DNA of 64,000 nt from Heptranchias perlo (taxonomy: Eukaryota). The first letter of the stretch is position 1; every line of letters begins with the position of its first letter. Below, one piece after another: positions 1 to 63,374 of this stretch. The stretch is from assembly GCF_035084215.1 (NCBI RefSeq), contig NC_090339.1, forward strand, positions 47,988,001 to 48,052,000, read 5' to 3'. The notes under the pieces were generated by a model that did no database searches, was not told the origin of the DNA, and was given only the letters and a program-made list of their open reading frames with translations. The translations under genes and the position numbers were made by a program.

Positions 1-1910
1 CATTAAAGGGAATCCAATAGTCTTCTAAAGGCATGTAAATAGTAAACGGGTAGTAAGAGGAGGGGTGGGGCCAATTAGGAACCAAAAAGGAGATCTACGC
101 ACGGAGGCAGAGGGTATGGCTGAGATACTAAATGAGTTCTTTGCATCGGTCTTTACCAAAAATGAAGATGCTGCCAAAGCCACAGTAAAAGAGGAAGTAG
201 TTGAGATACTGGATGGGTTAAAAATTGATAAAGAGGAGGTACTAGAAAGGCTAGCTGTACTTAAAGTAGATAAGTCACCCAGTCCAGATGGGATGCAGCC
301 AAGGTTACTGAGGGAAGGATGGAAATTGTAGAGGTGCTGGCCATAATCTTCCAATTTTCCTTAGATATGGGGGTGGTGCCAGAGAACAGGAGAATTGTAA
401 ATGTTACACCCTTGTTCAAAAAAGGGTGCAAGGATAAACCCGGCAACTACAGGCCAGTCATTTTAATCTCGGTGGTAGAGAAGCTTTTAGAAACGATAAT
501 CTGGGACCAAAATTAATATAGTCACTTGGGCAAGTGTGGATTAATTAAGGAAAGCCAGCACAGATTTGTTAAAGGCAATTCGTGTTTAACTAACTTGATT
601 GAGTTTTTCGAAGAGCTAACAGAGAGGGTTAATGAGGGCAATGCGGTTGATGTGTATATGGACTTTCAAAAGTCTTTTGATAAAGAGTCGTATAATAGGC
701 CTGTCAGCAAAATTGAAGTCCATGGGATAAAAGGGGCAGTAGCAGCATGGATACAGAATTAGGACCATTGCTTTTTTTGATATATATTAATGACTTGGAC
801 TTGGGTGTACAGGGCACAATTTCAAAATTTGCAGATGACACAAAATTGGAAGTGTAGTGAACAGTGAAGAGGATAGTAATAGACTTCAAGAGGATATAGA
901 CAGGCTAGTGGAATGGGCAGACACATGGCAGATGAAATTTAACGCAGAGAAGTGCGAAGTGATACATTTTGGCAGGAAGAATGAGGAGAGGCAATATAAA
1001 CTAAATGGTACAATTCTAAAGGGGGTGCAGGAACAGAGAGACCAGGGGGTATATGTGCACAAATCTTTGACGCTGGCAGGACAGGTTGAGAAAGTGGTTT
1101 AAAAAAAATACCTGATCCTGGACTTTATAAACAAATGTAAGGAGTATGTAACTCTTCACTCACCTGACGAAGGAGCAAAGCTCCGAAAGCTTGTGATTTC
1201 AAATAAAGCTGTTGGACTATAACCTGGTGTTGTGCGACTCCTTACATTTGTCCACCCCAGTCCATCACCGGCATCTCCACATCATTAATAAACAAAGGCA
1301 TAGAGTACAAAAACAAGGAAGTTACAATGAACCTTTATAAAACACTGGTTCGGCCACAACTGGAGTATTGAGTCCAATTCTGGGCAGCAGGCTTTGGGAA
1401 GGATGTGAAGGCCTTAGAGAGGGTGCAGAAAAGATTTACTAGAATGGTTCCAGGGATGGGGGACTTCAGTTATGTAGATAGACTGGAAAAGCTGGGGTTG
1501 TTCTCCTTAGAGCAGAGAAGGTTAAGAGGAGATTTGATGGAAGTGTTCAAAATCATGAAGGGTTTAGATAAAGTAAATAAAGAGAAACTGTTCCCATTGG
1601 CGGAAGGGTCGAGAGCCAGAGGACACAAATTTAAGGTGACTGGCAAAAGAGCCAAAGGCGACATGAGGAAAAACTTTTTTTTAAATGCAGCGAGTAGTTA
1701 TGATCTGGAATGCACTGCCTGAAAGAGTGGTGGAAGCAGGTTTAACCATGGCTTTCAAAAAGGAATTGGATAAATACTTGAAGGGAAAAAATTTGCAGGG
1801 CTATGGAGAAAGAGAGGGGAATGGGACTAACTGGATTGCTCTTACAAACAGCTGGCACAGGCTTGATGGACCAAATGGCCTCCTTCTGTGCTGTAACCAT
1901 TCTATGATTC
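1..1910 (+). mobile_element. CR1 LINE ORF2 (RT) 3' part, degenerate; interrupted by a Penelope LTR fragment
   Basis: ORF fragments KSPSPDG, NYRPV, SCLTNLIEFFE, MDFQK, KFADDTK, MKFNAEKC, LEQRRLRGDL. Frameshifts and an internal deletion near 760. 3' tail ccattctatgattc. Confidence 0.95.
1136..1285 (+). mobile_element. Penelope-like pseudo-LTR fragment with hammerhead motif, inserted in CR1
   Basis: Contains tcac-CTGACGA-a-ggagc-aaa-gctcc-GAAA-gctt-gtga and the tail ...ccggcatctccacatcat. Short inverted piece acaaatgtaaggagt at the left. Flanking duplication ataaacaaa at 1127-1135 and 1288-1296. Confidence 0.85.
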
Positions 1911-8945: not shown

Positions 8946-9232
8946 CGGGACGCAGTAGCGTCGGCGCTGTGCCTTCTCTGAAAATAACACTTTGCAGAGA
9001 ACTTGAATCACACTGCAGCAAACTGGATCAAATTACACATTCCAGACAAAGGGTTGGGTGAGTATTGTCCTCCCACATCCTGCCAGCGACAATAGCAATT
9101 ATCTTAGTTCCACCACAGTGGTGGCAATAGACGCAACCATAAATTTAAATTCATTATAAAAGAGCATTAGGTGCTTACCTGAAGCAGCCAATGAACACTC
9201 CATATTCTCCATCAACAGTGATTAAAATAATC

Positions 9233-9436
9233 ATGATGTGGAGATGCCGGTGATGGACTGGGGTGGACAAATGTACGGAGTCGTACAACACCAGGTTATA
9301 GTCCAACCGCTTTATTTGAAATCACAAGCTTTCGGAGCTTTGCTCCTTCGTCACCTGACGAAGGAGCAAAGCTCCGAAAGCTTGTGATTTCAAATAAAGC
9401 TGTTGGACTATAACCTGGTGTTGTACGACTCCGTAC
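9233..9436. mobile_element. Fold-back Penelope pseudo-LTR element (copy A1)
   Basis: Arms of about 85 bp around the centre cc (9354-9355). Unpaired 37-nt tail at 9233-9269. 12-bp duplication attaaaataatc at 9221-9232 and 9437-9448. Confidence 0.9.
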
Positions 9437-9747
9437 ATTAAAATAATCCATTTACCATTTGTGGAGATGCCGGTGATGGACTGGGGTTGACAATTGTAAA
9501 CAATTTTACAACACCAAGTTATAGTCCAACAATTTTATTTGAAAATCACAAGCTTTCGGAGGCTTCCTCCTTCCTCAGGTGAATGTCAAGAAATCCTCGC
9601 ACCTTTCGCATTTATAAATCACAGAGCAATACCTGGTGATTACAGATAATCTTTCCAACTGCCCGTTGCCAAGGCAATCAAAGTGTTCAGACAGAGAGGT
9701 GTTACCTACAGGACCACCGAATATACAAACAACCAAAAAAAAAACAG

Positions 9748-11961
9748 GGAGGTCTATCGTCAATTTGTCCGACCACACCCTTCAACCAGACGGAATCGAA
9801 GTTCTCAGCCAAGGGCTCAATTTCTGCCCCACTACCAAAATGGACCCCATTAGTCTCGCAGCGGACACAGAGGAATTCATCAGGAGAATGAGGCTCCGGG
9901 AATTCTTCCACAAACCCCAAGATTTCAGCAGCGAACACAATGAGACAATCAACGATCCGGAACAGCAGACAGAGGGATCCGCGGTACAGCAACCGAAGAG
10001 GAAAGAGTCAAACTGGACTCCTCCGGAGGGTCGCTGCCCTCAGCTTGACATGTATGCTCAAGCTGTCAGGAAATGCGTCAATGCCAGATTCATCAGCCGC
10101 ACTCAGAAGACAGTCCAGAATGTCACCCGAGCACAACGCAACGCCATCAACGCTCTCAAGACCAACCGCAACATCGTCATCAAACCAGCGGACAAAGGAG
10201 GAGCCAGTCATACAGAACAGAACGGACTATTGCAAAGAAGCATACCGAAAACTGGGCAACCAGGAACACTACAGACGGTTACCCGCAGATCCGACCAAAG
10301 AACACACCCACCAGCTCAACAAACTGATCAAGACCTTCCATCCAGACCTTCAAAGCATCCTACGCGCTCTCATCCCACGTACTCCCCGCGTGGGAAACTT
10401 CTACTGCCTCCCAAAGATACACAAAGCCAACACACCCGGACGTCCTATCGTATCAGGCAACGGAACCCTGTGTGAGAACCTCTCTGGATACATCGAGGGC
10501 ATCCTGAAACCCATCGTACAGGGAACCCCCAGCTTCTGTCGCGACACTACAGACTTCCTACAAAAACTCAGTACCCACGGACCAGTTGAACCAGGAACAC
10601 TTCTCACCACGATGGATGTCTCGGCACTCTACACCAGTATCCCCCACGATGACGGCATCGCTGCGATAGCATCAATACTCAACACCAACAACAGCCAATC
10701 TCCAGACGCCATCCTACAACTCATCCGCTTCATCCTGGATCACAATGTCTTCACCTTCGATAACCAGTTCTTTACCCAAACACACGGAACAGCCATGGGG
10801 ACCAAATTAGCACCCCAATACGCCAACATTTTCATGCACAAGTTCGAGCACGACTTCTTCACTGCACAGGACCTCCAACCAACACTATATACCAGATACA
10901 TCGACGACATTTTCTTTCTATGGACCCACGGCGAAGAATCACTAAAGAGACTACACAATAACATCAACAAGTTCCATCCCACCATCAAGCTCACCATGGA
11001 CTACTCCTCAGAATCAGTTTCTTTCTTGGACACACGAATCTCCATCAAAGACGGGCACCTCAGCACCTCACTCTCCCGCAAGCCCACGGACAACCTCACG
11101 ATTCTCCACTTTTTCAGCTTCCACCCTAACCACGTCAAAGAGGCCATCCCCTATGGACAGGCCCTGCGAATACACAGGGTCTGCTCAGACGAGGAGGAAC
11201 GCGATGGACACCTACAGACGCTGAAAGACGCCCTAGTAAGAACGGGATATGATGCTCGACTCATCGATCGACAGTTCCAACAGGCCACAGCGAAAAATCG
11301 CATCGACCTCCTCAGAAGACTAACACGGGACGTAACCAACAGAGTACCCTTCGTCGTCCAGTACTTTCCCGGAGCGGAGAAACTACACCATGTTCTCCGC
11401 AGCCTTCAACATGTCATCAATGAGGACAAACACCTCACTATGGCCATCCCCACACCTCCACTACTCGCCTTTAAACAGCCACCCAACCTCAAACAGACAA
11501 TCGTTCGCAGCAAATTACCCAGCTTTCAGGAGAACAGCATCCACGACACCACACAACCCTGCCACGGTAACCTCTGCAAGACATGCCAGATCATCGACAC
11601 AGATACCACCACCCATCAGGTACATGGTTCATACTCCTGTGACTCGGCCAACGTTGTCTACCTCATACGTTGCAGGAAAGGATGCCCCGAAGCACGGTAC
11701 ATTGGCGAGACCATGCAGACACTGCGACAACGGATGAACGGACACCGCGCAACAATCGCCAGACAGGAGGGTTCCCTCCCAGTCGGGGAACACTTCAGCA
11801 GTCAAGGACATTCAGCCACCGACCTTCGGGTAAGCGTACTCCAAGGCGGCCTTCGAGACACATGACAACGCAAAATCGTCGAGCAGAAATTGATAGCCAA
11901 GTTCCGCACCCATGAGGACGGCCTCAACCGGGATCTTGGGTTCATGTCACGCTACACGTAA
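9748..11961 (+). pseudogene. Penelope-like RT / GIY-YIG endonuclease ORF with one frameshift and one premature stop
   Basis: Motifs IKPADKGGA, FYCLPKIHK, GRPIVS, MDVSALYT, GTAMG, RYIDD, FLD; Cys/His linker CHGNLCKTC..H; VVYLIRC...YIGET..LRQRMNGH. Frameshift near 10207. TGA at 11863-11865, after which QRKIVEQKLI...GLNRD continues. Confidence 0.93.
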
Positions 11962-12222
11962 CCCCACCAGCGAACAAAAGTTATCTGTTTTTAATATAAC
12001 GGGTCATTTGCTGTCTTTCTCTTCCTTCCGGATGTTTCTGCCTCTCTCTCTCGCTCTGTTTTTTTTGGTTGTTTGTATATTTGGTGGTCCTGTAGGTAAC
12101 ACGTCTCTGTCTGAACACTTTGATTGCCTTGGCAACGGGCAGTTGGAAAGATTATCTGTAATCACCAGGTATTGTTCTGTGATTTATAAATGCGAAGGGT
12201 TCGAGGATTTCATTTCCACAAC

Positions 12223-12263
12223 ATTCACCTGAGGAAGGAGGAAGCCTCCGAAAGCTTGTGAAT
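12223..12263 (+). ncRNA. Minimal type I hammerhead ribozyme motif in the Penelope pseudo-LTR
   Basis: attcac (stem I)-CTGAGGA-a-ggagg-aag-cctcc (stem II)-GAAA-gctt-gtgaat (stem I'). Palindromic AGCT in place of stem III. Stem II covaries among copies. Confidence 0.75.
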
Positions 12264-12318
12264 TTCAAATAAAATTGTTGGACTATAACTTGGTGTTGTA
12301 AAATTGTTTAAAATAGTC

Positions 12319-12523
12319 ATGATGTGGAGATGCCCGGTGATGGACTGGGGTGGACAAATGTACGGAGTCGTACAACACCAGGTTATAGTCCAACAGCTTT
12401 ATTTGAAATCACAAGCTTTCGGAGCTTTGCTCCTTTGTCGGGTGACGAAGGAGCAAAGCTCCGAAAGCTTGTGATTTCAAATAAAGCTGTTGGACTATAA
12501 CCTGGTGTTGTACGACTCCGTAC
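12319..12523. mobile_element. Fold-back Penelope pseudo-LTR element (copy A2, duplicate of A1)
   Basis: Near-identical to 9233-9436, including its flanks; the centre reads gg at 12441-12442. Confidence 0.9.
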
Positions 12524-13259
12524 ATTAAAATAATCCATTTACCATTTGGGCAGAGTTACCAATAAGAAAAAATGGTCATCACAGAATAAAAAGGACATTA
12601 AGTACATACGTAGATCGATATATAAAAAAAATTATTTCACTAGCACCAAATTTAGTTTTAAAACCTTTAATAATATGTGATCCATGTAGGTTAATACTGG
12701 GTATGGGGAGAAAACAAAAATATCGGCTTGTAGCACTCTGTGTTTAGAATGGTTTCATCTCTTGGTCCTCAAATAGCATTAATAAGATCTGCAGCATTAC
12801 AACAACAGAGGAACCCTTTTAATGAACATTCAAAAGCCACCATAGTGAGTTGTTTTGTGCTCATTCTACTAATCGTCAAGTGTCACAAGCTTTCATTGTG
12901 GACAAGATGAAATCATTCGCACTGAATGAGAAAACAATGACAGCAATCTGAAGTACAACTGGGGACTTCAGTCATCGCTGTGTTTAAATATTTCAGAGAA
13001 GACTCCATTCAGCTATAAATGGCCATTAATTGGAATGCTTGTAATTCAGAGAGAGACAGTACACTTATTGGGGTTGATTTTAACTTGCTGAAATCGGCAT
13101 TAACAGGATGTTAACCTCAAAAAGACTAAACACAAATAATTTAACCAATGAATAAACAGAACACCACAAACATCCTGCTGCAGTATTACATTTAAACAAG
13201 ATCCATCCAGCTACAACACACTTAAGGCCTTGTATTATAGGGTCTGACATTTAAAAGTT

Positions 13260-15751: not shown

Positions 15752-15818
15752 CAGCCTGGTATTAACTACAGGAAATAGCAATGCCAGTAACGCTCCATTC
15801 AACATGTGCATCTGAAGC
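15752..15818 (-). CDS. TMEM164: TMEM164 internal coding exon (67 nt; [22 protein letters not shown])
   Basis: Minus strand reads tctttggcAG|GCTTCAGATG...ACCAGGCTG|GTGAGT. The peptide matches recalled TMEM164 [22 protein letters not shown] and is in frame with the 30494-30543 exon. Confidence 0.95.
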
Positions 15819-16872
15819 CTGCCAAAGACAGTTCAACAGAAAGGGATAGTTATTTTTTTTGCCAAGTAACAGAATTTAGTTACAGTAATTAATCAGATAA
15901 ATCAGAAAGGTGTGAATGTGTTTAGTACGCTACATGCTGAGTTTGCTGCATGCAAAGTTTGCGACTGTGATATTTTAATTGCCCTCAGTACTGTAGTTGT
16001 AGTTGAGTAAGCGTTAGTCTTGGCTTGATGCAACCCACCTCTTTCCTGTTAGAATTCTCTTCCTTGTAAAATGATCAGAGTTCACCAGCAAACAGAATGT
16101 TCGGACTTCAGTTGTTATTCTGATTTGGACAAAGCAGCATCAGAATTGGAGGAGTTTAAAGGGTCTTTGTCTTTATAAAAAGACTTTTGCAAACTTCTTT
16201 TTGGTTTTGGTTTTGTTTTTTTTTGGGGGGGGGGTGGGGGGGGGGGGGAAAGCCATATATAATTTCTGCCACAATCTTACTTATGTCAATATACAGAGGG
16301 GGAGAAATTGGACCTGGCCACGTCTGCTTTTTGGATGAGAAATGATCGATTGGGGGACAAATTTCAGGTCGAGCTCTCTCGTGCCCGATCTACCCTGAAG
16401 TGCATCGGGTGCAAAATTGGAAGCCAATTACTTCCAACTGTGCAGGGGGTCCACCTGAAACAGGCATTAGGTGCCTTTAATATGCAAATAGGGGTCCTTA
16501 TGCCCGATTTAAGACCCCCGATCAAAATTCATAAATTGGGTGAAGCTTGTTTCACTTGATCCGGGTCTTCAGTGATTCTTCACCACCCCCCCCGCCCCCA
16601 CCTCACCCCCTCCGTTATTCAATGGCTTCTGGCTTCAAAAGCTCTACTGTCACCTCATTAATTATACTATTATATTGTGCAGCTGCTTAAAGAAGTAGAT
16701 TCCCAATGTTGCCTCATGGCAGTTGTTTTAAGTCTTTCTCTCTGATCACTTTCTCCAATTGCTGATGAAGGTATGTACACGACAGTGAGCAAAGAAAAAG
16801 CACACAGCTGCCCATTGTGGAAGAGCTTAGCCAGAAAACATAGCTGCTTCTGACTCCACCTCCTCTATAGTC

Positions 16873-17088
16873 AACTGTAAACAATTTTACAACACCAAGT
16901 TATAGTCCAGCAATTTTATTTTAAATTCACAAGCTTTCGGAGGCTTCCCCCTTCGTCAGGTGAACGATTCACATCGTTCACCTGACGAAGGGGGAAGCCT
17001 CCGAAAGCTTGTGAATTTAAAATAAAATTGCTGGACTATAACTTGGTGTTGTAAAATTGTTTACAATTGTCAACCCCAGTCCATCACC
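16873..17088. mobile_element. Fold-back Penelope pseudo-LTR element with hammerhead cores on both strands
   Basis: Arms of about 95 bp around the loop tcac (16969-16972). Tail on the right. Duplication tcctctatagtc at 16861-16872 and 17090-17101. Confidence 0.92.
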
Positions 17089-19002: not shown

Positions 19003-20293
19003 ATTCAGGGAGCCATGCTAGTCACTTCAGGGAGATCTGAGAGTCCAACAGAGCATTTTTCAGAGTATCCAACACCCAGAGAAGTCAAGCAAACCCAATG
19101 TATCGGACATGGGTTGTAAAACAATTCTGTAAAATACATCAGGTATCTCTAATCGTGGAGCTTTATGGACTTGGCAAAAAAGAAACTACTCCATGAAAAA
19201 TATACAGCCCTATCAGAGGACAGCTACCAATGGTGATGGGGTTGGAGAAAGCAAGGCCTCTCTCAAAAGGAATTCAATTCACAAACCTGAATTGAAATAG
19301 TTCTAACAGCAATCCCTGGTTAGAACTGCAGCAACACCTCTCCATGTGGCTTAGCAGGGCAAAGCACAGTATAGTGCAGAGCCATACATACGAGAGTAAG
19401 CCGATCTGAGCCAGGGCAGCAGTTATGGTGCGAAAATTGGTCTCACTACCACTGGGCTAGAGGAGGGGGGGGGGGAAATCAGTTCTTAGTCCTGATTGCT
19501 ATCCAGTGATTCCTGAGAAAAAAAGTGCAGGGTGTGTAGATGATAGGTGAGGAAAAGGAAAAGCAATTGAACAGGGAGAGACTGCCCTACAAGTCATTAG
19601 AATTTAGCTTGCCAATAATTGAGAGAAACATTTTAAGGGGTTATTCTTGTTCAACACCTTCTCCTCCCCCAAATCGTACTGTGTCTATATTTGGAGGTTT
19701 TGCTTTCTCCAACCTCATCACCACTGCCACAATCACAGGAATGCTTATGAGTGATGTTGCAAACCTTCGATTGTTGAAGAAACTATGTTGTAGAAGTAGT
19801 ATTTGACATCTATTCATGAACTGTATTTTTTAAGAGAGAACCAGAAGAGAGCCTGCAAGGAATGCTTTTGCACTATTTCATCTGAAGAAGAGGTCATTCA
19901 ATTAACAGTTAGTATAACAGCAGCCCATATGCTATGAAATTTAATTGATTAATTGAGATCTACAGAAACTCTCAGGCCATAGAACAATATAGAGTTCATG
20001 TTACATTATAGGTTATATGGTACTTGCGGATACACACCTTGCCTTGCTTTCTCCAACCCCATCATCATTGCTACTGTCCTCTGATAGAGCTGTATATTTT
20101 TCATGGAGTACTTTCTTTTTGCCAAGTCCATAAAGGTCCACGATTAGAGATACCTGATTTATTTTACAGAGATGTTTTACAACCCATGTCCGATACATTG
20201 GGTTTGCTTGACTTCTCTGGGTGTTGAATACTCTGAAAAATGCTCTGTTGGACTCTCAGATCTCCCTGAAGCTACTAGCATGACTCCCTGAAT
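19003..20293. repeat. ~250-bp inverted repeat (19003-19257 and 20041-20293) with a ~780-bp spacer
   Basis: The arms align as reverse complements along their length, e.g. agagaagtcaagcaaacccaatgtatcggacatgggttgtaaaac versus gttttacaacccatgtccgatacattgggtttgcttgacttctct. Confidence 0.95.
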
Positions 20294-42742: not shown

Positions 42743-45700
42743 ATAAGACCATAAGAGATAGGAGCAGGAGTAGGTTATTCAGTCTCTCAAGCCTGCTCCG
42801 CCATTTAGTGAGATCATGGCTGATCTGATTTTTACCTCAACTCCTCTTCCCACCCTTTCCCCATATCTTTTGACTCCCTTGCTGATGTCTAACTCAGCCT
42901 TGAATATATTCAATGACTCAGCCTCCACAGCTTTTTGGGGTAAAGAATTCCAAAGATTCACGACCCTCTGGGAGAAGAAATTCCTCCTCATTTCCGTCTT
43001 AAACGGGTGACCCCTTATTCTGAGACTATGCCCCCGAGTTTTAGATTCCCCCATGAGGGGGTAACATCCTCTCAGAATCTACCCTATCGAGTCCCCTCAG
43101 AATCTTGTATGTTTCCAGAAGATCTCCTCTCATTCTTCAAAACTCCAATGAGTACAGATTCAACCTGTTCAATCTTTCCTCATAAGACAATCCTTCCATA
43201 CCTGGAATCAACCTAGTGAACCTTCTCTGAACTGCCTCCAATGCAAGTATGTCCTTCCTTAAATAAGGGCACCAGAACTGTATGCAGTACTCCAGCTGTG
43301 GTCTCACCAGCACCCTGTACAGTTGCAGCATGACTTCCCTGCTTTTATACTCCATCCCCCTGGAAGTAAAAGGTCAATATTCCGTTTGCCTTCCGGATTA
43401 CCTGCTGCACCTGTATGTTGACTTTTTGTGTTTCATGAATGAGGACACCCAGATCCCTCTGTACCACAGCATTTTGTAGTATTTCTCCATTCAAATAATA
43501 TTTTGCTTTTTTATTTTTCCTCCCAAAGTGGATGACTTCACTTTTTCCCACATTATATTCCATCTGCCAAATTTTTGCCCATTCACTTAACCTGTCAATA
43601 TTCTTTTGCAGACACTTTGTGTCCTCATCGCAACTTGCTTTTCCACCTATCTTTGTATCATCAGCAAATTTGGCCACAAGACACACTGTTCCTTCATCCA
43701 AGTCATTGATATATATTGTAAATAGTTGAGGCCCCAACACTGAGCCCTGTGGCACCCCACTAGTTACAGATTGCCATTTTGAAAATGACCCTTTTATCCC
43801 GACTCTATGCTTTCTGTTAGTTAGCCAATCCTCTATCCATGCCAGTATATTACCCCCAACATCATGAGCTCTTATCTTGTGCAGTAATCTTATGTGGCAC
43901 CTTATCGAATGCCTTTTGGAAATCCAAATATACTGCATCCATTGGTTCCCCTTTATCCATCCTGCCCGTTAGTTCCTCAAAGAACTCTAATAAATTTGTC
44001 AGACATGATTTCCCCTTCATAAAACCATGTGGACTCTCCTTGATTGTATTGAGTCTCCAAATGTCCTGCTACTACTTCCTTAATGATGGATTCTAGCATT
44101 TTCCCAATGACAGGTGTTAGGCTAACTGGTCTATAGTTACCTGCTTTCTGTCTCACTCCCTTCTTGAATAGGGGTGTTACGTTTGCGGTTTTCCAATCTG
44201 CTGGGACCTTCCCAGAATCTAGTGAATTCTGGAAGATTACAACCAATGCATCCACTATCTCTGTAGCCACTTCCTTTAAGACCCTCGGATGCAAGCCATC
44301 AGGTCCAGGGGACTTGTCAGCCTTTAGACCCATTAGTTTACCTAGTACTTTTTCTCTAGTAATAGTGACTGCTTTTAGTTCCTCCCTCCCCTTTGCCCCT
44401 TGATTTTCTACTATTATTGGTACTATTAGTGTCTTCTACTGTGAAGACATACAAAATATCTGTCCAATTCCTCTGCCATTTCCTCGTTTTCCATTATTAT
44501 TTCCCCAGCCTCATCCTCTAAAGGGACCAATGTTTACTTTGGCTACCTTCCTTTTTATATACTTGTAGAAGCTTTTACTGTCAGTTTTTATATTTCTTGC
44601 TAGTTTACTCTCAATTTATTTTCTCCTTTATTATTCTTTTCGTCATCCTTTGCTGGTTTTTAAAGTTTTCCCAATCTTCAGGCTTACCAGTAATCTTTGC
44701 CATGTTGTATGCTTTTTCTTTTGACCTGATACCATCCTTGACTTCCTTAGTTAGCAATGGTTGGTTCACCCTTTTTGTGGAGTCTTTCCTCCTCAGAGAT
44801 ATTTTTTTTTTTGCGAGTCATAAAATATCTTTTTAAATGTTTGCCACTGCTTATCCACCATCATACCATCTAATCTGTTTACCCAGTCCACTTTAGCCAA
44901 TTCCACCCTCATTCCTTTATAATTTCCCTTATTTAAGTTTAATACAGTAGCTTCAGACCCAAGATCCTCGCTCTCAAACTGGATGCGAAATTCTATCATG
45001 TTATGATCACTGCTTCCCAAGGGATCCTTTACTTTGAGATCATTAATTAATCCTGTTTCATTACCCATTACCAGATCCAAAATGGCCTGTTCCCTGGTTG
45101 GTTCCCCGACGCATTGGTCTAAGAAACAGTCCCTAATACACTCTATGAACTCCTCCCTCAGGGCTATTTTTGCCAATTTGATTTGTCCAATCTATGTGAA
45201 AGTTAAAATCGCCCATGATTATTGCATTACCTTTTTTACAAGCCCCCCTTATTTCCTGATTAATATTTTGCCCTACAGTGTGGTTACTGTTAGGGGGCCT
45301 ATATACTACTCCCACCAGTGATTTCTTTCCCTTGCTATTTCTTACCTCTACCCAAATTGATTCGACATCTTGATCTTATGAGCCAAAATCATCTCACTAT
45401 TGTACCAATTTCATCCTTTATTAACAGAGCTACCCCATCACTTTTACCTTTTTTCCTATCCTTACGGAATGTTAAATAACCCTGAATATTTAGCTCCCAA
45501 CCTGGATCACATTGCAGCCATATCTCTGTAATGGCCACGAGATCATACCCATTTATTTCTATTTGTGCCATCAATTCTACTTTCTTATTACAAAAGCTGC
45601 GCGCACTCAGATAAAGAACCTTTAATTTTGTCTTTTTACCATTCTTTCCTACCCCGGCCTCATTTGCTAGTGCACTCTTATGTTTGTACTCAGTCCCTTC

Positions 45701-46090
45701 CTGACACACTCTGTTTATCATTACCCCCATCACTTTCCTGTACTACTTCCTTGTCTTTTCTCTATCAATTTAAACTTCGCCCTACCTGAGCCCTCCCCCC
45801 CGCCCCCCCGCTAACTGCTTAGATTAAAGCCTTCCCTACCGCCCTAGTTATTCGGTTTGCCAGAACACTGGTCCCAGCATGGTTCAGGTGAAGCCCGTCC
45901 CAACAAAACAGCTCCCTCTTTCCCCAGTACTGGTGCCAGTGCCCCGTGAATCGAAACTCACTTCTCCCACACCAATCTTTGAGCCACACATTCATCTCTC
46001 TGATCTGATTTACTCTGTGCCAATTTGCTTGTGGCTCAGGTAATAATCCGGAGATTATCACCTTTGTGGTTCTGCTTTTTAATTTAGTCC
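42743..46090 (-). mobile_element. Long CR1 LINE: 3' end of the esterase-type ORF1 plus APE-RT ORF2, frameshifted
   Basis: WHQYWG..FCWDGLHLN (ORF1); YDLVAITEIW, GVVYRPP, MGDFN, SDHN (APE); PQGSVLGP, KFADDTK (RT). Confidence 0.96.
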
Positions 46091-46255
46091 AACAGGAATA
46101 TCCACACAGTATTAGTTAAGTTATCTAACTCCGGTAGTTGAATTTCAAAAGAGAAAAAAGATTTGCTGTATAAAAAGATTGATTATCATTAGTTTAGCAC
46201 ACTCCCCACAATCAAATAGCCGTGCCAACACTCACTGTCTGGACTCACACAAGAA

Positions 46256-47612
46256 TGGTGGGTAAAATTTTGGAGTCTATTATTAAGGAGACAGTAGCGG
46301 AACATTTGGATAAACATAATTTAATAGGACAAAGTCAGTATGGCTTTATGAAGGGGAAGTCATGTCTGACAAATTTGCTCGAGTTCTTTGAGGACATAAC
46401 GTACAGGGTGGATAAAGGGGAACCAGTGGACGTAGTGTATTTAGACTTCCAGAAGGCATTCGACAAGGTTATTGCTCAAGATAAAGAATCACTGGATTGG
46501 GGGTAATATTCTGGCATGGGTGGAGGATTGGTTATCTAACAGGAAGCAGAGAGTTGGGATAAATGGTTCATTCTCGGACTGGCAACCAGTAGCCAGTGGT
46601 GTTCCGCAGGGGTCGGTGCTGGGTCCCCAACTCTTTACAATCTATGTTAACGATTTGGAGGAGGGGACCGAGTGTAACATATCAAAGTTTGCAGATGATA
46701 CAAAGATGGGAGGGAAAGTAGAGAGTGAGAAGGACATAAAAAACCTACAGGGGGATATAGACAGGCTGAGTGAGTGGGCGGAGATTTGGCAGATGCAATA
46801 CAATATTGGAAAATGTGAGGTTATGCACTTTGGCAGGAAAAATCAGAGAGCAAGTTATTATCTTAATGGCAAGAAACTGGAAAGTACTGCAGTACAAAGG
46901 GATCTGGGGGTCCTAGTGCAAGAAAATCAAAAAGTTAGTATGCAGGTGCAGCAGGTGATCAAGAAGGCCAACGGAATGTTGCCGTTTATTGCTAGGGGGA
47001 TAGAGTATAAAAACAGGGAGGTATTGCTGCAGTTATACAAGGTATTGGTGAGACCGCACCTGGAATACTGCATACAGTTTTCGTGTCCATACTTAAGAAA
47101 AGACATACTTGCTCTCAAGGCAGTACAAAGAAGGTTCACTCGGTTAATCCCGGGTATGGGGGGGTTGAGTGGATTTGGACTCTACTCATTGGAGTTCAGA
47201 AGAATGAGAGGCGATCTTATTGAAACATATAAGATTGTGAAGGGGCTTAATCGGGTGGATGCGGTAAGGATGTTCCCAAGGATGGGTGAAACTAGAACTA
47301 GGGGGCATAATCTTAGAATAAGGGGCTGCTCTTTCAAAACTGAGATGAGGAGAAACTTCTTCACTCAGAGGGTAGTAGGTCTGTGGAATTTGCTGCCCCA
47401 GGAAGCTACATCATTAAATAAATTTAAAACAGAAATAGACAGTTTCCTAGAAGTAAAGGGAATTATGGGTTACGGGGAGCGGGCAGGAAATTGGACATGA
47501 ATTTAGATTTGAGGTTAGGATCAGATCAGCCATGATCTTATTGAATGGCGGAGCAGGCTCAAGAGGCCGATTGGCCTACTCCTGCTCCTATTTCTTATGT
47601 TCTTATGTTCTT
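46256..47612 (+). mobile_element. Young 5'-truncated CR1 inserted in an old SINE
   Basis: 342-aa open RT segment; tail cttatgttcttatgttctt; aatg on both sides. Confidence 0.96.
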
Positions 47613-48454
47613 AATGACACTTGGATGAGGTACTAGGCCAACTACCCGTGAAACCATATAGCCCAGCGACAGTCATCACCTTTGGAAGAGAAGGAAGGAA
47701 ATTGGGGGAAGGGAAGAAGACATCACTCCTGTATCCCAAGTATTTTACCAGTTTTTTTTTGTATTATATTAGACGGACTGAAGTGAATTTTCCCCTGGTC
47801 AAAGCAACAAGACAACATTTATACTTCAGTGCAAAACTTAAATATTTTCCCCCCCTTTTCTCATCATGTTTATGAGAAGATGGGGGAGAAATATATAAGT
47901 TTTGCACTTGTGGGAAAATTTACCACCAGCATTAGGCAGGAGGGCATCTCATTCTGGAAAATGACAGGCGAGTGGGCAGTACAGATACACAAAGAAATCC
48001 ACCCTTCAACCACAGACATAAATATGATATTATTATATTGAAAATTAACATGGAAAACAAACCCGAACAGGATGGAGTTGGGAGTTATTTATTCAGTAAG
48101 ACACACAAAGAAGCAATTTTTTCCCTAATGCCATTGCAAAGAAGTAAGAACTGAGATCTGTAAATATGGGCGCACAGATAAAGAGACTCACTTAATCTGT
48201 ATTCAAACACAATAAACACACTTAACCTCTCTCACTTCAAGAGTTTAAAATCACATTTCTATAGCTTGATTTTTGCTTAGCATTTTTGAATTTTTGCATT
48301 AAAATAATATATTTTGGTTAATTCTAAAAACATTTTTAAACTTCATAATTGATGGATTTTAATCTAAAACCCAATATTGAGAAAATAGGTAATACCAGGC
48401 TTTATCAATATTCAACAGACCAGCCAAACTATTACTTTCCCAGAAACTCCTTCA

Positions 48455-61235: not shown

Positions 61236-61904
61236 CCATGATGTGGAGATGCCGGTGATGGACTGGGGTTGACAATTGTAAACAATTCTACAACACCAAG
61301 TTATAGTCCAGCAATTTTATTTTAAATTCACAAGCTTTCGGAGGCTTCCTCCTTCCTCAGGTGAACGAAATGAAATCCTCGAAATGAAATCGCATTTATA
61401 ATTCACAGAACAATGCTTGGTGATTACAGACAGTTTTTTCAACTGCCCGTTGCCAAGGCAATCAGTGTGCAGACAGACAGGTGTTACAGAAATTGATAGC
61501 CAAGTTCTGCACCCATGAGGACGGCCTCAACCGGGATCTTGGGTTCATGTCACGCTACACGTTACACGTTACCCCACCAGCGAACAAATGTTATCTGTTT
61601 TTAATATAACGGGTCAGTTGCTGTCTTTTCTATGTTTCTACCTCTCTATCTGTTTTTTTTTGTTTGTTGTTTTTTTTTGGTGATTTGTATATTCTGAGAC
61701 CTTGCAGGTAACACCTTTCTGTCTGCACACTGATTGCCTTGGCAATGGGCAGTTGAAAAAACTGTCTGTAATCACCAAGCATTGTTCTGTGAATTATAAA
61801 TGCGATTTCATTTCGTTCACTTGAGGAAGGAGGAAGCCTCCGAAAGCTTGTGAATTTAAAATAAAATTGCTGGACTATAACTTGGTGTTGTAAAATTGTT
61901 TACA
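61236..61904 (+). mobile_element. Severely 5'-truncated Penelope-like element with inverted pseudo-LTRs and hammerheads on both strands
   Basis: Inverted arms of about 200 bp flank the last codons of the ORF (KLIAKFCTHEDGLNRDLGF) and the 3' UTR. Duplication attaaacggtat at 61224-61235 and 61905-61916. Confidence 0.93.
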
Positions 61905-63374
61905 ATTAAACGGTATAGTAGCATAGTGGTTATGAGAAAGGAAAACTCACTTTAATAATTAAAAGGCATTGGAAATGAAAAAAAACAGCAGACACCATAA
62001 ATAAATCATATTTAATAATGTATGTTCTAAGTTATGTCAATTACAATGAAATATGTGGACAAATACCAGAGCAGGGAGAACAAACACTCAGATTCCCCAT
62101 TGGCTAGATTGTTCATAACTGCATGCCTATTGTTTTTGTTTAAAATGGGGGAGAAATGAATGAGCATAACACTACACTGATGTTTCGTTCATATCTGGTA
62201 CTATATGGTAAGTGTACGTCTTCTCTACGTGTGTGTTGTAAACTGGATATGCCCAGATATTTTAACAGCTCTCCTGATATCTGGTTTCCCCTTCATCCTA
62301 CACACCACTCACACTGTGCATCATTAACTGCAATTGAGTTCCCAGTTTTACCTGGCCACATGACCATATTAACTGTAGTTTGGGGACCTTGGCTCAATTT
62401 TTTGACATCAGAGATTCAAGACCAAACTAAGCGTTTTTTGTGAAGAGATGGATATTTAATTTCTTCAAATGAAAAAGCTTCAAAATATCACATTTTGTGT
62501 TGGCTTCTTTATTTAGGATTTGAAGTAAAATATTACCAACACTTTTAAATCTACCGAAGTTCCATACTGTTCCTTTTAGTGAGGGCCATTGCCTCTCCAT
62601 AGGCAGTGGGAGAGAAAACTAAGTAAAATAAATCTCCTGGGACTTTGCCATGATTATATTATAATGACATTTATGCCACATTACAAAAAAATATTTTTTG
62701 GGGGAAGGGGGCGAGGCAAGGGAGGTCAGTCTCTAGTTAATTTCTTTGTATTGACCCTGATGAACATAAGTGCAAATAGAACTATTCTCATTCATATGGA
62801 CCAACACCATTACTTTTTCAAACTCTGCCTCTAGGCAGTCATCCACAGAAAGACTGGCACAGTGCACACTTTGCAAACCCAATACACATCCATAACTACA
62901 CTGTGTGGTGTGATGCTGAGGCATACAGACCAGGAAGATATGAGCTATGAACCCTAGTCAGTGCTGAATTAGCTTACCTGAGCTGGCACACTAATGTAGG
63001 CCCTGCAGTTGGCCTCAGTGTCAACGAACTAGAAAGAAAAAAGGGGCAAAAATGGCTTGGGTTTCCATTCCTAATTGCTATGGAGGTGCTCTGCGGTAAA
63101 ATGTGCATGTGCGTGTAAGGTTAGGGTTCAGTTTGGCTATGATGAATAGTCCAACACTCGCTCGAGGTATCCAGGCAGAATACCAGTGGGTTACCAATGT
63201 TCATTTAACTTACCCCAGTAGGAGTCACTGCCTACAGAAAAGTAGGAGATGGGGAAGAAGATCAAAGATAAAATTAGATTGAGGGAAAAATTATACATTT
63301 ACCTTGCGTTTCTCTCTCTACAGATGCCACCTGACCTGCTAAGTGTTTCCAGCATTTTCTGTTTTATTTCAATT

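Follow-up and report, generated by a model that had tools for sequence, protein, structure and literature searches.

In a 64,000-nt stretch of the genome of the shark Heptranchias perlo (GCF_035084215.1, NC_090339.1:47,988,001-48,052,000, forward strand; hereafter the window, to which all positions refer), we find a family of Penelope-like insertions whose pseudo-long terminal repeat (pseudo-LTR) carries a motif that we identify, with great confidence, as a minimal hammerhead ribozyme. The broader reading that we favor, and consider quite probable, is that a standard type I motif resides in a Neptune-type pseudo-LTR, that RNA of the source element is cut weakly, by two copies acting together or with the aid of a protein, and that the copies in the window are broken or fragmentary and masked by antisense sequence. 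This ribozyme class has been in print since 2014, and our finding adds a shark family while changing nothing there. The genomic copies also parallel, now for the Neptune clade, in vitro results from a lizard element: two internal starts of reverse transcription, priming on both strands and an uncleaved template.

Hammerhead motifs and their carrier element

A descriptor comprising CUGANGA, a stem II of at least 4 pairs, GAAA, UH and a stem I of at least 4 pairs found seven intact type I minimal hammerheads (C3 at 1164+, 9355+, 9578-, 12229+, 16959-, 16982+ and 61360-), against a mean of 0.005 and a maximum of 1 in 200 dinucleotide shuffles of the window; these and all later counts of motifs, arms and covarying positions refer to the window only. 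All seven have a stem I of 4-6 bp with the core UCAC/GUGA, CUGANGA, an extra A and a 5-bp stem II with a 3-nt loop, followed by GAA and then A15.1-G-C-U16.1-U17. The core (C3 U4 G5 A6 N7 G8 A9, G12 A13 A14, A15.1, U16.1 and H17) is complete in each, the AGCU palindrome is kept in 7/7, and there is no stem III beyond the palindromic 15.2/16.2. Both the extra A between positions 9 and 10.1 and the G10.1-C11.1 pair are present in 10 of the 10 aligned arms that cover them.

The hammerhead in the sense arm of the insertion that we call B (12223..12263, +) has a 6-bp stem I, C3 at 12229, the extra A at 12236 and a stem II of GGAGG/CCUCC; its palindrome occupies 12253-12256, and with U17 at 12257 and G1.1 at 12258 the predicted cut falls between 12257 and 12258. 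A second intact motif lies in the inverted arm of the same insertion (9546..9582, -; C3 9578, U17 9550). Four more arms have a damaged core: 9353- lacks C3, two at 12434-12449 are overwritten at their center, and in 61821+ C3 has become U. An earlier note on this DNA had proposed a minimal hammerhead in the pseudo-LTR, and that proposal is borne out by the descriptor set against shuffles and by the fit to the published consensus, with which the extra A after A9 and the AGCU palindrome that it described agree. Its cut after CUU at 12257/12258 was numbered correctly and its motif positions mostly hold, but one C3 lies at 1164 rather than 1163 and another at 9578 on the minus strand rather than near 9590, and the motif at 16959- had been missed.

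A looser pattern gave 14 matches where 4.8 are expected; seven of these failed the stem test and were rejected as hammerheads. One loose match, at 43640, sits in the FADDTK codons of a long interspersed nuclear element (LINE) reverse transcriptase (RT), and 55790 reads alike. Our own covariance model, trained on 12 arms that match it by construction, recovered 13 arms and nothing else of note in the window, with no further family members.

The motif lies in a pseudo-LTR downstream of a Penelope-like open reading frame (ORF), C3 12229 being 268 nt past the ORF stop. That ORF, in insertion B (9745..11961, +), is 5'-truncated and decayed; open frames at 9618-10475 and 9892-11865 carry a DKG motif, RT motifs including YIDD, a CX4CX2C linker and a GIY-YIG domain with two internal Cys. 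RVT_1 is matched at E 7e-11, and GIY-YIG at E 4e-4, just under its cut-off. The top ones of 1616 homologues are 91% identical and are named from Heptranchias perlo itself; other sharks, turtles and invertebrates follow. The frame is damaged by a frameshift near 10206, a short in-frame deletion in the linker and a premature stop at 11863-11865, which precedes the last endonuclease residues (the normal stop is at 11959-11961), and its 5' end is about 150 codons short relative to one homologue (P0004); judged from these lesions, the insertion B copy is dead. The likely start codon lies where the tail ends, some 95 nt past the cut site, as suggested by CATCATGG at 61236-61243-. A CX2-5CxxC linker is found in the carrier and in 48 of the 49 proteins with a pattern-matched GIY-YIG among 122 examined; this linker marks Neptune or Nematis, the clades reported from vertebrate hosts being Neptune and Poseidon. 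In the available part of the account of the Neptune clade (Craig et al. 2021, PMC8557442), a C-terminal GIY-YIG with two internal Cys, the CX2-5CxxC linker, an inverted 5'-truncated arm and a 30-40-bp tail at one end are all shared with the shark element, and we found no difference there. An anchor pattern outside the ribozyme had 0 matches in viral contigs, and a protein scan of the same contigs gave nothing either. The single anchor match in a metagenome contig (L001) has no hammerhead, scores 17 bits on our covariance model and was taken as chance.

Every sequence feature given for metazoan Penelope minimal hammerheads in the available text of Cervera and De la Peña (2014, PMC4209133) is present in the shark motif: type I topology, CUGANGA plus one extra nucleotide, G10.1-C11.1, GAAA-N-N'-U-H, a palindromic 15.2/16.2 and a stem I of 4-6 bp. 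In their Fig. S3, the rows for turtle and rotifer end G-C-U-U, as the shark motif does, and the shark stem II of 5 bp with a 3-nt loop stands at the short end of their range. Most of their copies are solitary or form opposite-strand pairs 100-700 bp apart, as in the shark window. Sharks are absent from Table S1, Fig. S3 and the searched supplement text of that paper, and a literature search whose coverage lay outside subscription journals and Repbase found no shark-specific report of Penelope hammerheads. Related retrozymes have been reported in one chondrichthyan genome, according to the part of a preprint available (Li et al. 2026, 10.64898/2026.07.22.740005). Chance resemblance within a repeat, to which the missing Rfam match and the few independent changes described below could be credited, is scarcely credible given that the pseudo-LTR position, the complete core, the two stems, the extra nucleotide and the palindrome all agree with the published motif, and given the shuffle controls.

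Sequence change within the family was examined in an alignment of 12 arms out of six insertions (A, X, B, C, D and E). Stem I is paired in 95% of cells and stem II in 100%, against 25-56% when the pairing is slid. The stem II variants GGAGC/GCUCC, GGAGG/CCUCC and GGGGG/CCUCC are present as the earlier note had described them, but its reading of them as compensatory change stands only in part: the C-G of subfamily A is replaced by G-C in subfamily B, a two-sided change, whereas the G-U variant (from A-U) is one-sided, so that covariation was overstated and comes down to one event. Stem I has no two-sided change among the 12 aligned arms, and for the whole ribozyme the tally is one two-sided change and two one-sided ones. 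Between subfamilies A and B, 4/37 positions differ (N7, the 10.5/11.5 pair and one loop base), none of them in the invariant core; only 0.37% of 400,000 random four-change sets leave the motif intact under a crude uniform model, and 11 positions differ in the next 52 nt, a range that takes in a few flank bases. These comparisons support selection on the motif. Contigs from four of 22 public runs, among which no RNA data set was listed, bear on the same positions: among the 40 of 64 differences listed, there is variation at N7, and C-to-U at 12226 would leave a G-U pair in stem I. In two runs from other organisms (X19 and X8), contig cover is nearly nil over 11980-12219 and returns at the 5' strand of stem I.

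The question of cleavage

Several observations weigh against the joint reading. The stems of the ribozyme hold only one two-sided change, and the 12 aligned arms are not independent because they come from six insertions. The earlier note's suggestion of a check with hammerhead models went against it, as Rfam gave no hammerhead match, to E 1 in the window and to E 10 in 12180-12310. The monomer folds stems I and II, with a single-motif folding z of only -1.4 to -2.6, which is modest. The carrier is likely Neptune-type, an assignment made by linker motif and not by a tree, and Nematis also has the linker. Finally, the nearest-neighbor energy of a double hammerhead joined through AGCU is -20.7 to -23.5 kcal/mol. 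Two monomers do better by 2.5 kcal/mol (-23.2 to -26.0), and a symmetric dimer that is inactive does better by about 7-9 (-27.9 to -32.3 kcal/mol, tertiary contacts being outside the model). Separately, the whole 3' module folds no better than shuffles in two of three copies, and Rfam matches to microRNA families proved to be the fold-back palindromes, all under gathering score.

This energy ranking agrees with the low activity of the Schistosoma minimal motif, even as a dimer (PMC4209133), and with the protein dependence of the Anolis motif. The Anolis element is one vertebrate case assayed in vitro; as far as the available text of Frangieh et al. (2024, PMC11167929) describes it, its RNA was cleaved only when its protein was added, nuclease-dead protein included, and cleavage depended on C3-G8. 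Two-copy action in the shark family, which the earlier note took to be required, would be a suggestion of the literature, one that nearest-neighbor energies do not favor. We nevertheless think it fairly probable that weak, assisted and real cleavage of tandem transcripts takes place in the source element.

A monomer chaperoned by the element's protein, for which a second copy would be superfluous, is a possibility that we hold to be unlikely, though not strongly so: the Anolis dependence on protein alone would fit it, the monomer fold forms stem I in cis, and nowhere in the window do two direct pseudo-LTRs of a single subfamily stand in tandem. A monomer, however, cannot close a canonical stem III because the loop under A15.1-U16.1 would be only 2 nt. 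The 15.2-16.2 palindrome, moreover, is kept across phyla and suits two-copy pairing (PMC4209133), and the Anolis protein, a predicted dimer, could simply join two RNAs (PMC11167929).

The ends of the genomic arms bear on whether cleavage matters at all. The scissile bond is crossed by 11 of the 12 arms, one of them by just 2 nt, the twelfth being too short to do so, and no arm begins at G1.1; templates would therefore have been uncleaved or re-ligated, as in the Anolis element, and cleaved RNA was rejected as the template of the short copies. With the bond intact in every arm that reaches the site, the motif might instead be a non-cleaving structural or protein-binding element, or a part of the promoter or leader, that is hammerhead-like in sequence and in which cleavage plays no part. 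The Anolis ribozyme is likewise dispensable for insertion in vitro, and the available account reports no RNA-seq reads that end at its site (PMC11167929); metazoan minimal motifs cleave poorly, their authors leaving other functions possible (PMC4209133), and the dimer fold is energetically disfavored. Against this stand all the catalytic core positions together with H17, which are kept across subfamilies and fit the cross-phyla consensus, and the cleavage that the Anolis motif does perform. We regard a non-cleaving element as improbable and retain weak, assisted cleavage in the source element as the preferred reading.

Following published work, we propose a mechanism in which a tandem source locus would be transcribed and the element's protein would nick AT-rich DNA on both strands. 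Reverse transcription would then have two internal start sites, separated by about 37 nt (the length of the tail) and lying 55-100 nt past the ribozyme on its downstream side; the template RNA would be uncleaved or re-ligated, and two cDNAs would meet head-to-head. The likely role of the ribozyme would be to trim tandem transcripts, or to part them, at a point upstream of the following ORF start, and the insertion step would not need it. In host pre-mRNA, the geometry of the copies suggests that the antisense arm would come first and that a long duplex would form instead of a ribozyme.

Insertion architecture and its templates

All six insertions are two-armed and joined head-to-head. One arm of each ends at the tail and the other about 20-40 nt earlier, so that 3' ends are unequal in 6/6, and a short target-site duplication (TSD) of about 11-12 bp flanks five of the six; no short TSD fits insertion B. 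The short copies are all inverted pairs, and the window has no direct tandem hammerhead repeats of 150-450 bp of the kind found in animal non-LTR retrozymes. The latter (Cervera 2020, PMC7229834; Li et al. 2026, 10.64898/2026.07.22.740005) also carry type I motifs and derive from Penelope-like pseudo-LTRs but are described, in the available parts of these sources, as direct tandem repeats.

Insertion B (~9460-12310) consists of an inverted 5' arm (9460..9751, -), an ORF remnant and a sense arm. The inverted arm bears a tail of about 37 nt (9460-9496) that is absent from the right arm, the 3' untranslated region and pseudo-LTR at 12045..12310 (+), which stops at the short, inner 3' end. A direct pseudo-LTR-ORF-pseudo-LTR tandem is absent from the window, insertion B being 5'-truncated and without a direct pseudo-LTR of the matching subfamily upstream of it; this lack has been published as common for truncated Penelope-like copies. 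The insertion is flanked by a 238-bp direct duplication, whose copies at 9224..9461 (+) and 12310..12548 (+) differ by 6 substitutions and 1 indel, for which reason an assembly artefact was rejected. The stretch 9233-12523, described before as one element with two pseudo-LTRs, is accordingly composite: insertion B lies between duplication copies that hold an older fold-back.

The older fold-back, X1 (9233..9439), is a subfamily-A insertion with a 170-bp palindrome (9270-9439) and a 12-bp TSD; it has an intact hammerhead with C3 at 9355+, and its left arm begins at U4. Its duplicate X2 (12319..12526) has both hammerhead cores damaged at the center, at 12436-12441, where 4/6 substitutions between the palindrome copies gather and both ribozyme cores are lost. 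At 238 bp the duplication is about 20 times longer than the other five TSDs, and it encloses the entire older fold-back. It is most simply read as a long target duplication, of which this is a single case; a cruciform does not explain its length, as 68 nt are left between the ends once the 170-bp palindrome is removed.

Insertion A (1136..1285) has a long arm with C3 1164+ and the tail, an inverted arm of about 15 nt and a 12-bp TSD with 1 mismatch. Insertion C (16872..17088) is a fold-back with two intact G-U-variant hammerheads (16959- and 16982+) and a TSD of about 12 bp. The fold-back of insertion D (32431..32590; TSD about 11 bp) has arms that end upstream of the cut, by 2 and 5 nt, and has no core, and insertion E (61236..61907; TSD about 12 bp) has two arms, one with the intact motif at 61360- and one with the C3-to-U change at 61821+.

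At the short 3' end lies a 6-bp hairpin (9495..9510, -, in insertion B; 1231-1246, +, in copy A; alignment columns 77-92) with two-sided changes at two pairs, more than in the ribozyme. There is also an invariant GGACU/AGUCC stem that extends into the tail. By analogy, the hairpin likely matches the stem-loop where the Anolis enzyme begins reverse transcription. That enzyme's element, the Poseidon element PAc of Anolis carolinensis, resembles the shark element in several respects, as far as the available text goes (PMC11167929): both have a hammerhead upstream of two internal starts that define a tail, AT-rich targets, extension on both strands and an uncleaved or re-ligated RNA template. PAc differs in belonging to the Penelope/Poseidon clade without a linker, and in having its ORF start inside stem II, whereas the shark element has the linker. 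The Penelope of Adineta vaga (Arkhipova et al. 2013, PMC3846280) likewise has head-to-head inverted pseudo-LTRs with a tail on one; its TSDs are 8-10 bp, its pseudo-LTR holds TATA plus initiator-like (Inr-like) motifs, and no TSD of hundreds of bases was found in the available account, unlike the 238-bp shark block.

The 5' ends of 7/12 arms lie -47 to -2 relative to the cut site. A putative promoter in the sense arm of insertion B, with a TATA-like box at 12185 and an Inr-like motif (A at 12212) 27 nt apart (12185..12218, +), and TATA-like and Inr-like motifs of canonical spacing at 61371-61400 (-), just upstream of the ribozyme, would with their spacing of 27-29 nt put the transcription start of these two arms at -46 or -40. 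With a start there, the short copies may have arisen by run-off on the leader of the transcript. Several points speak against this: the left arm of insertion B has no Inr, chance alone readily yields the consensus, short arms would be expected in any case, and the Drosophila promoter is TATA-less. The arms of insertion B also differ from each other by 3 substitutions and 2 indels in the ~21-27-nt spacer before stem I (aligned as 9586-9606, -, and 12195-12221, +), against 5 differences in the other 227 nt. Among the 22 of 188 loose contig ends listed, one from public run X1 matches the left-arm spacer at 11/13 letters. These observations give a weak hint that the two arms may derive from two source RNAs.

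Host gene and other repeats

The window appears, from its coding traces, to lie in long introns of TMEM164. A 67-nt TMEM164-like host exon bounded by AG/GT is found at 15752..15818 (-; Pfam TMEM164 E 2e-4, under the whole-protein cut-off), and a 50-nt candidate for the preceding exon at 30494..30543 (-), in frame with it, is one that we take to be TMEM164. With the 67-nt exon nearby, the neighboring insertions are likely intronic, and the ORF of insertion B would be antisense to the gene. The scan for host genes covered 150 of 181 open frames of at least 75 codons; outside it were 13 frames of the Penelope element and 18 in 3.6-4.2, 23.5-24.3 and 52.7-53.4 kb.

In each head-to-head pair the antisense arm would be transcribed before the sense arm, so a duplex rather than a ribozyme is expected and host transcripts should stay uncut. 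Predicted minus-strand folds agree, the motif pairing wholly with the antisense arm (-439 kcal/mol for the insertion B duplex); on this modeling, ribozymes in host pre-mRNA are predicted to be masked by their own antisense arms. Three intact motifs (9578, 16959 and 61360) are sense to the minus-strand host gene, which might suggest that a copy has been co-opted to regulate TMEM164 pre-mRNA. In the transcript, however, each of the three follows its own antisense arm, the copies are young, with 0-3% difference between arms, and several of the cores are decayed; we consider co-option very improbable.

Beyond the preferred reading of weak cleavage and masked copies, the window might as a whole be a fossil record of Neptune insertion, an account that we offer tentatively and think unlikely to hold in all its parts. 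A protein dimer would prime one cDNA per nicked strand, at the tail end and at the covarying hairpin, and the short fold-backs would be run-offs of the 5' leader, most ending just inside the start predicted by TATA and Inr. The arms of insertion B would come from two RNAs, with second-strand priming 238 bp away across a pre-existing palindrome, and an obligatory antisense arm would silence intronic ribozymes and permit very high copy numbers. A young family of high copy number such as this one could show, across the genome, whether the short copies stop where transcription begins and whether each arm has a fixed start site.

Other repeats in the window include a 178-nt inverted repeat of 96% identity (19003-19180 / 20116-20293) around a 935-nt insert and a near-palindrome of about 80 nt at 47828-47908, neither with a Penelope-family match. 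A 27-bp minisatellite of more than 20 near-identical units, open in several frames, occupies 23579-24253, and two opposite LINE RT fragments at 43345-47500 form a 523-nt inverted repeat of 75% identity.

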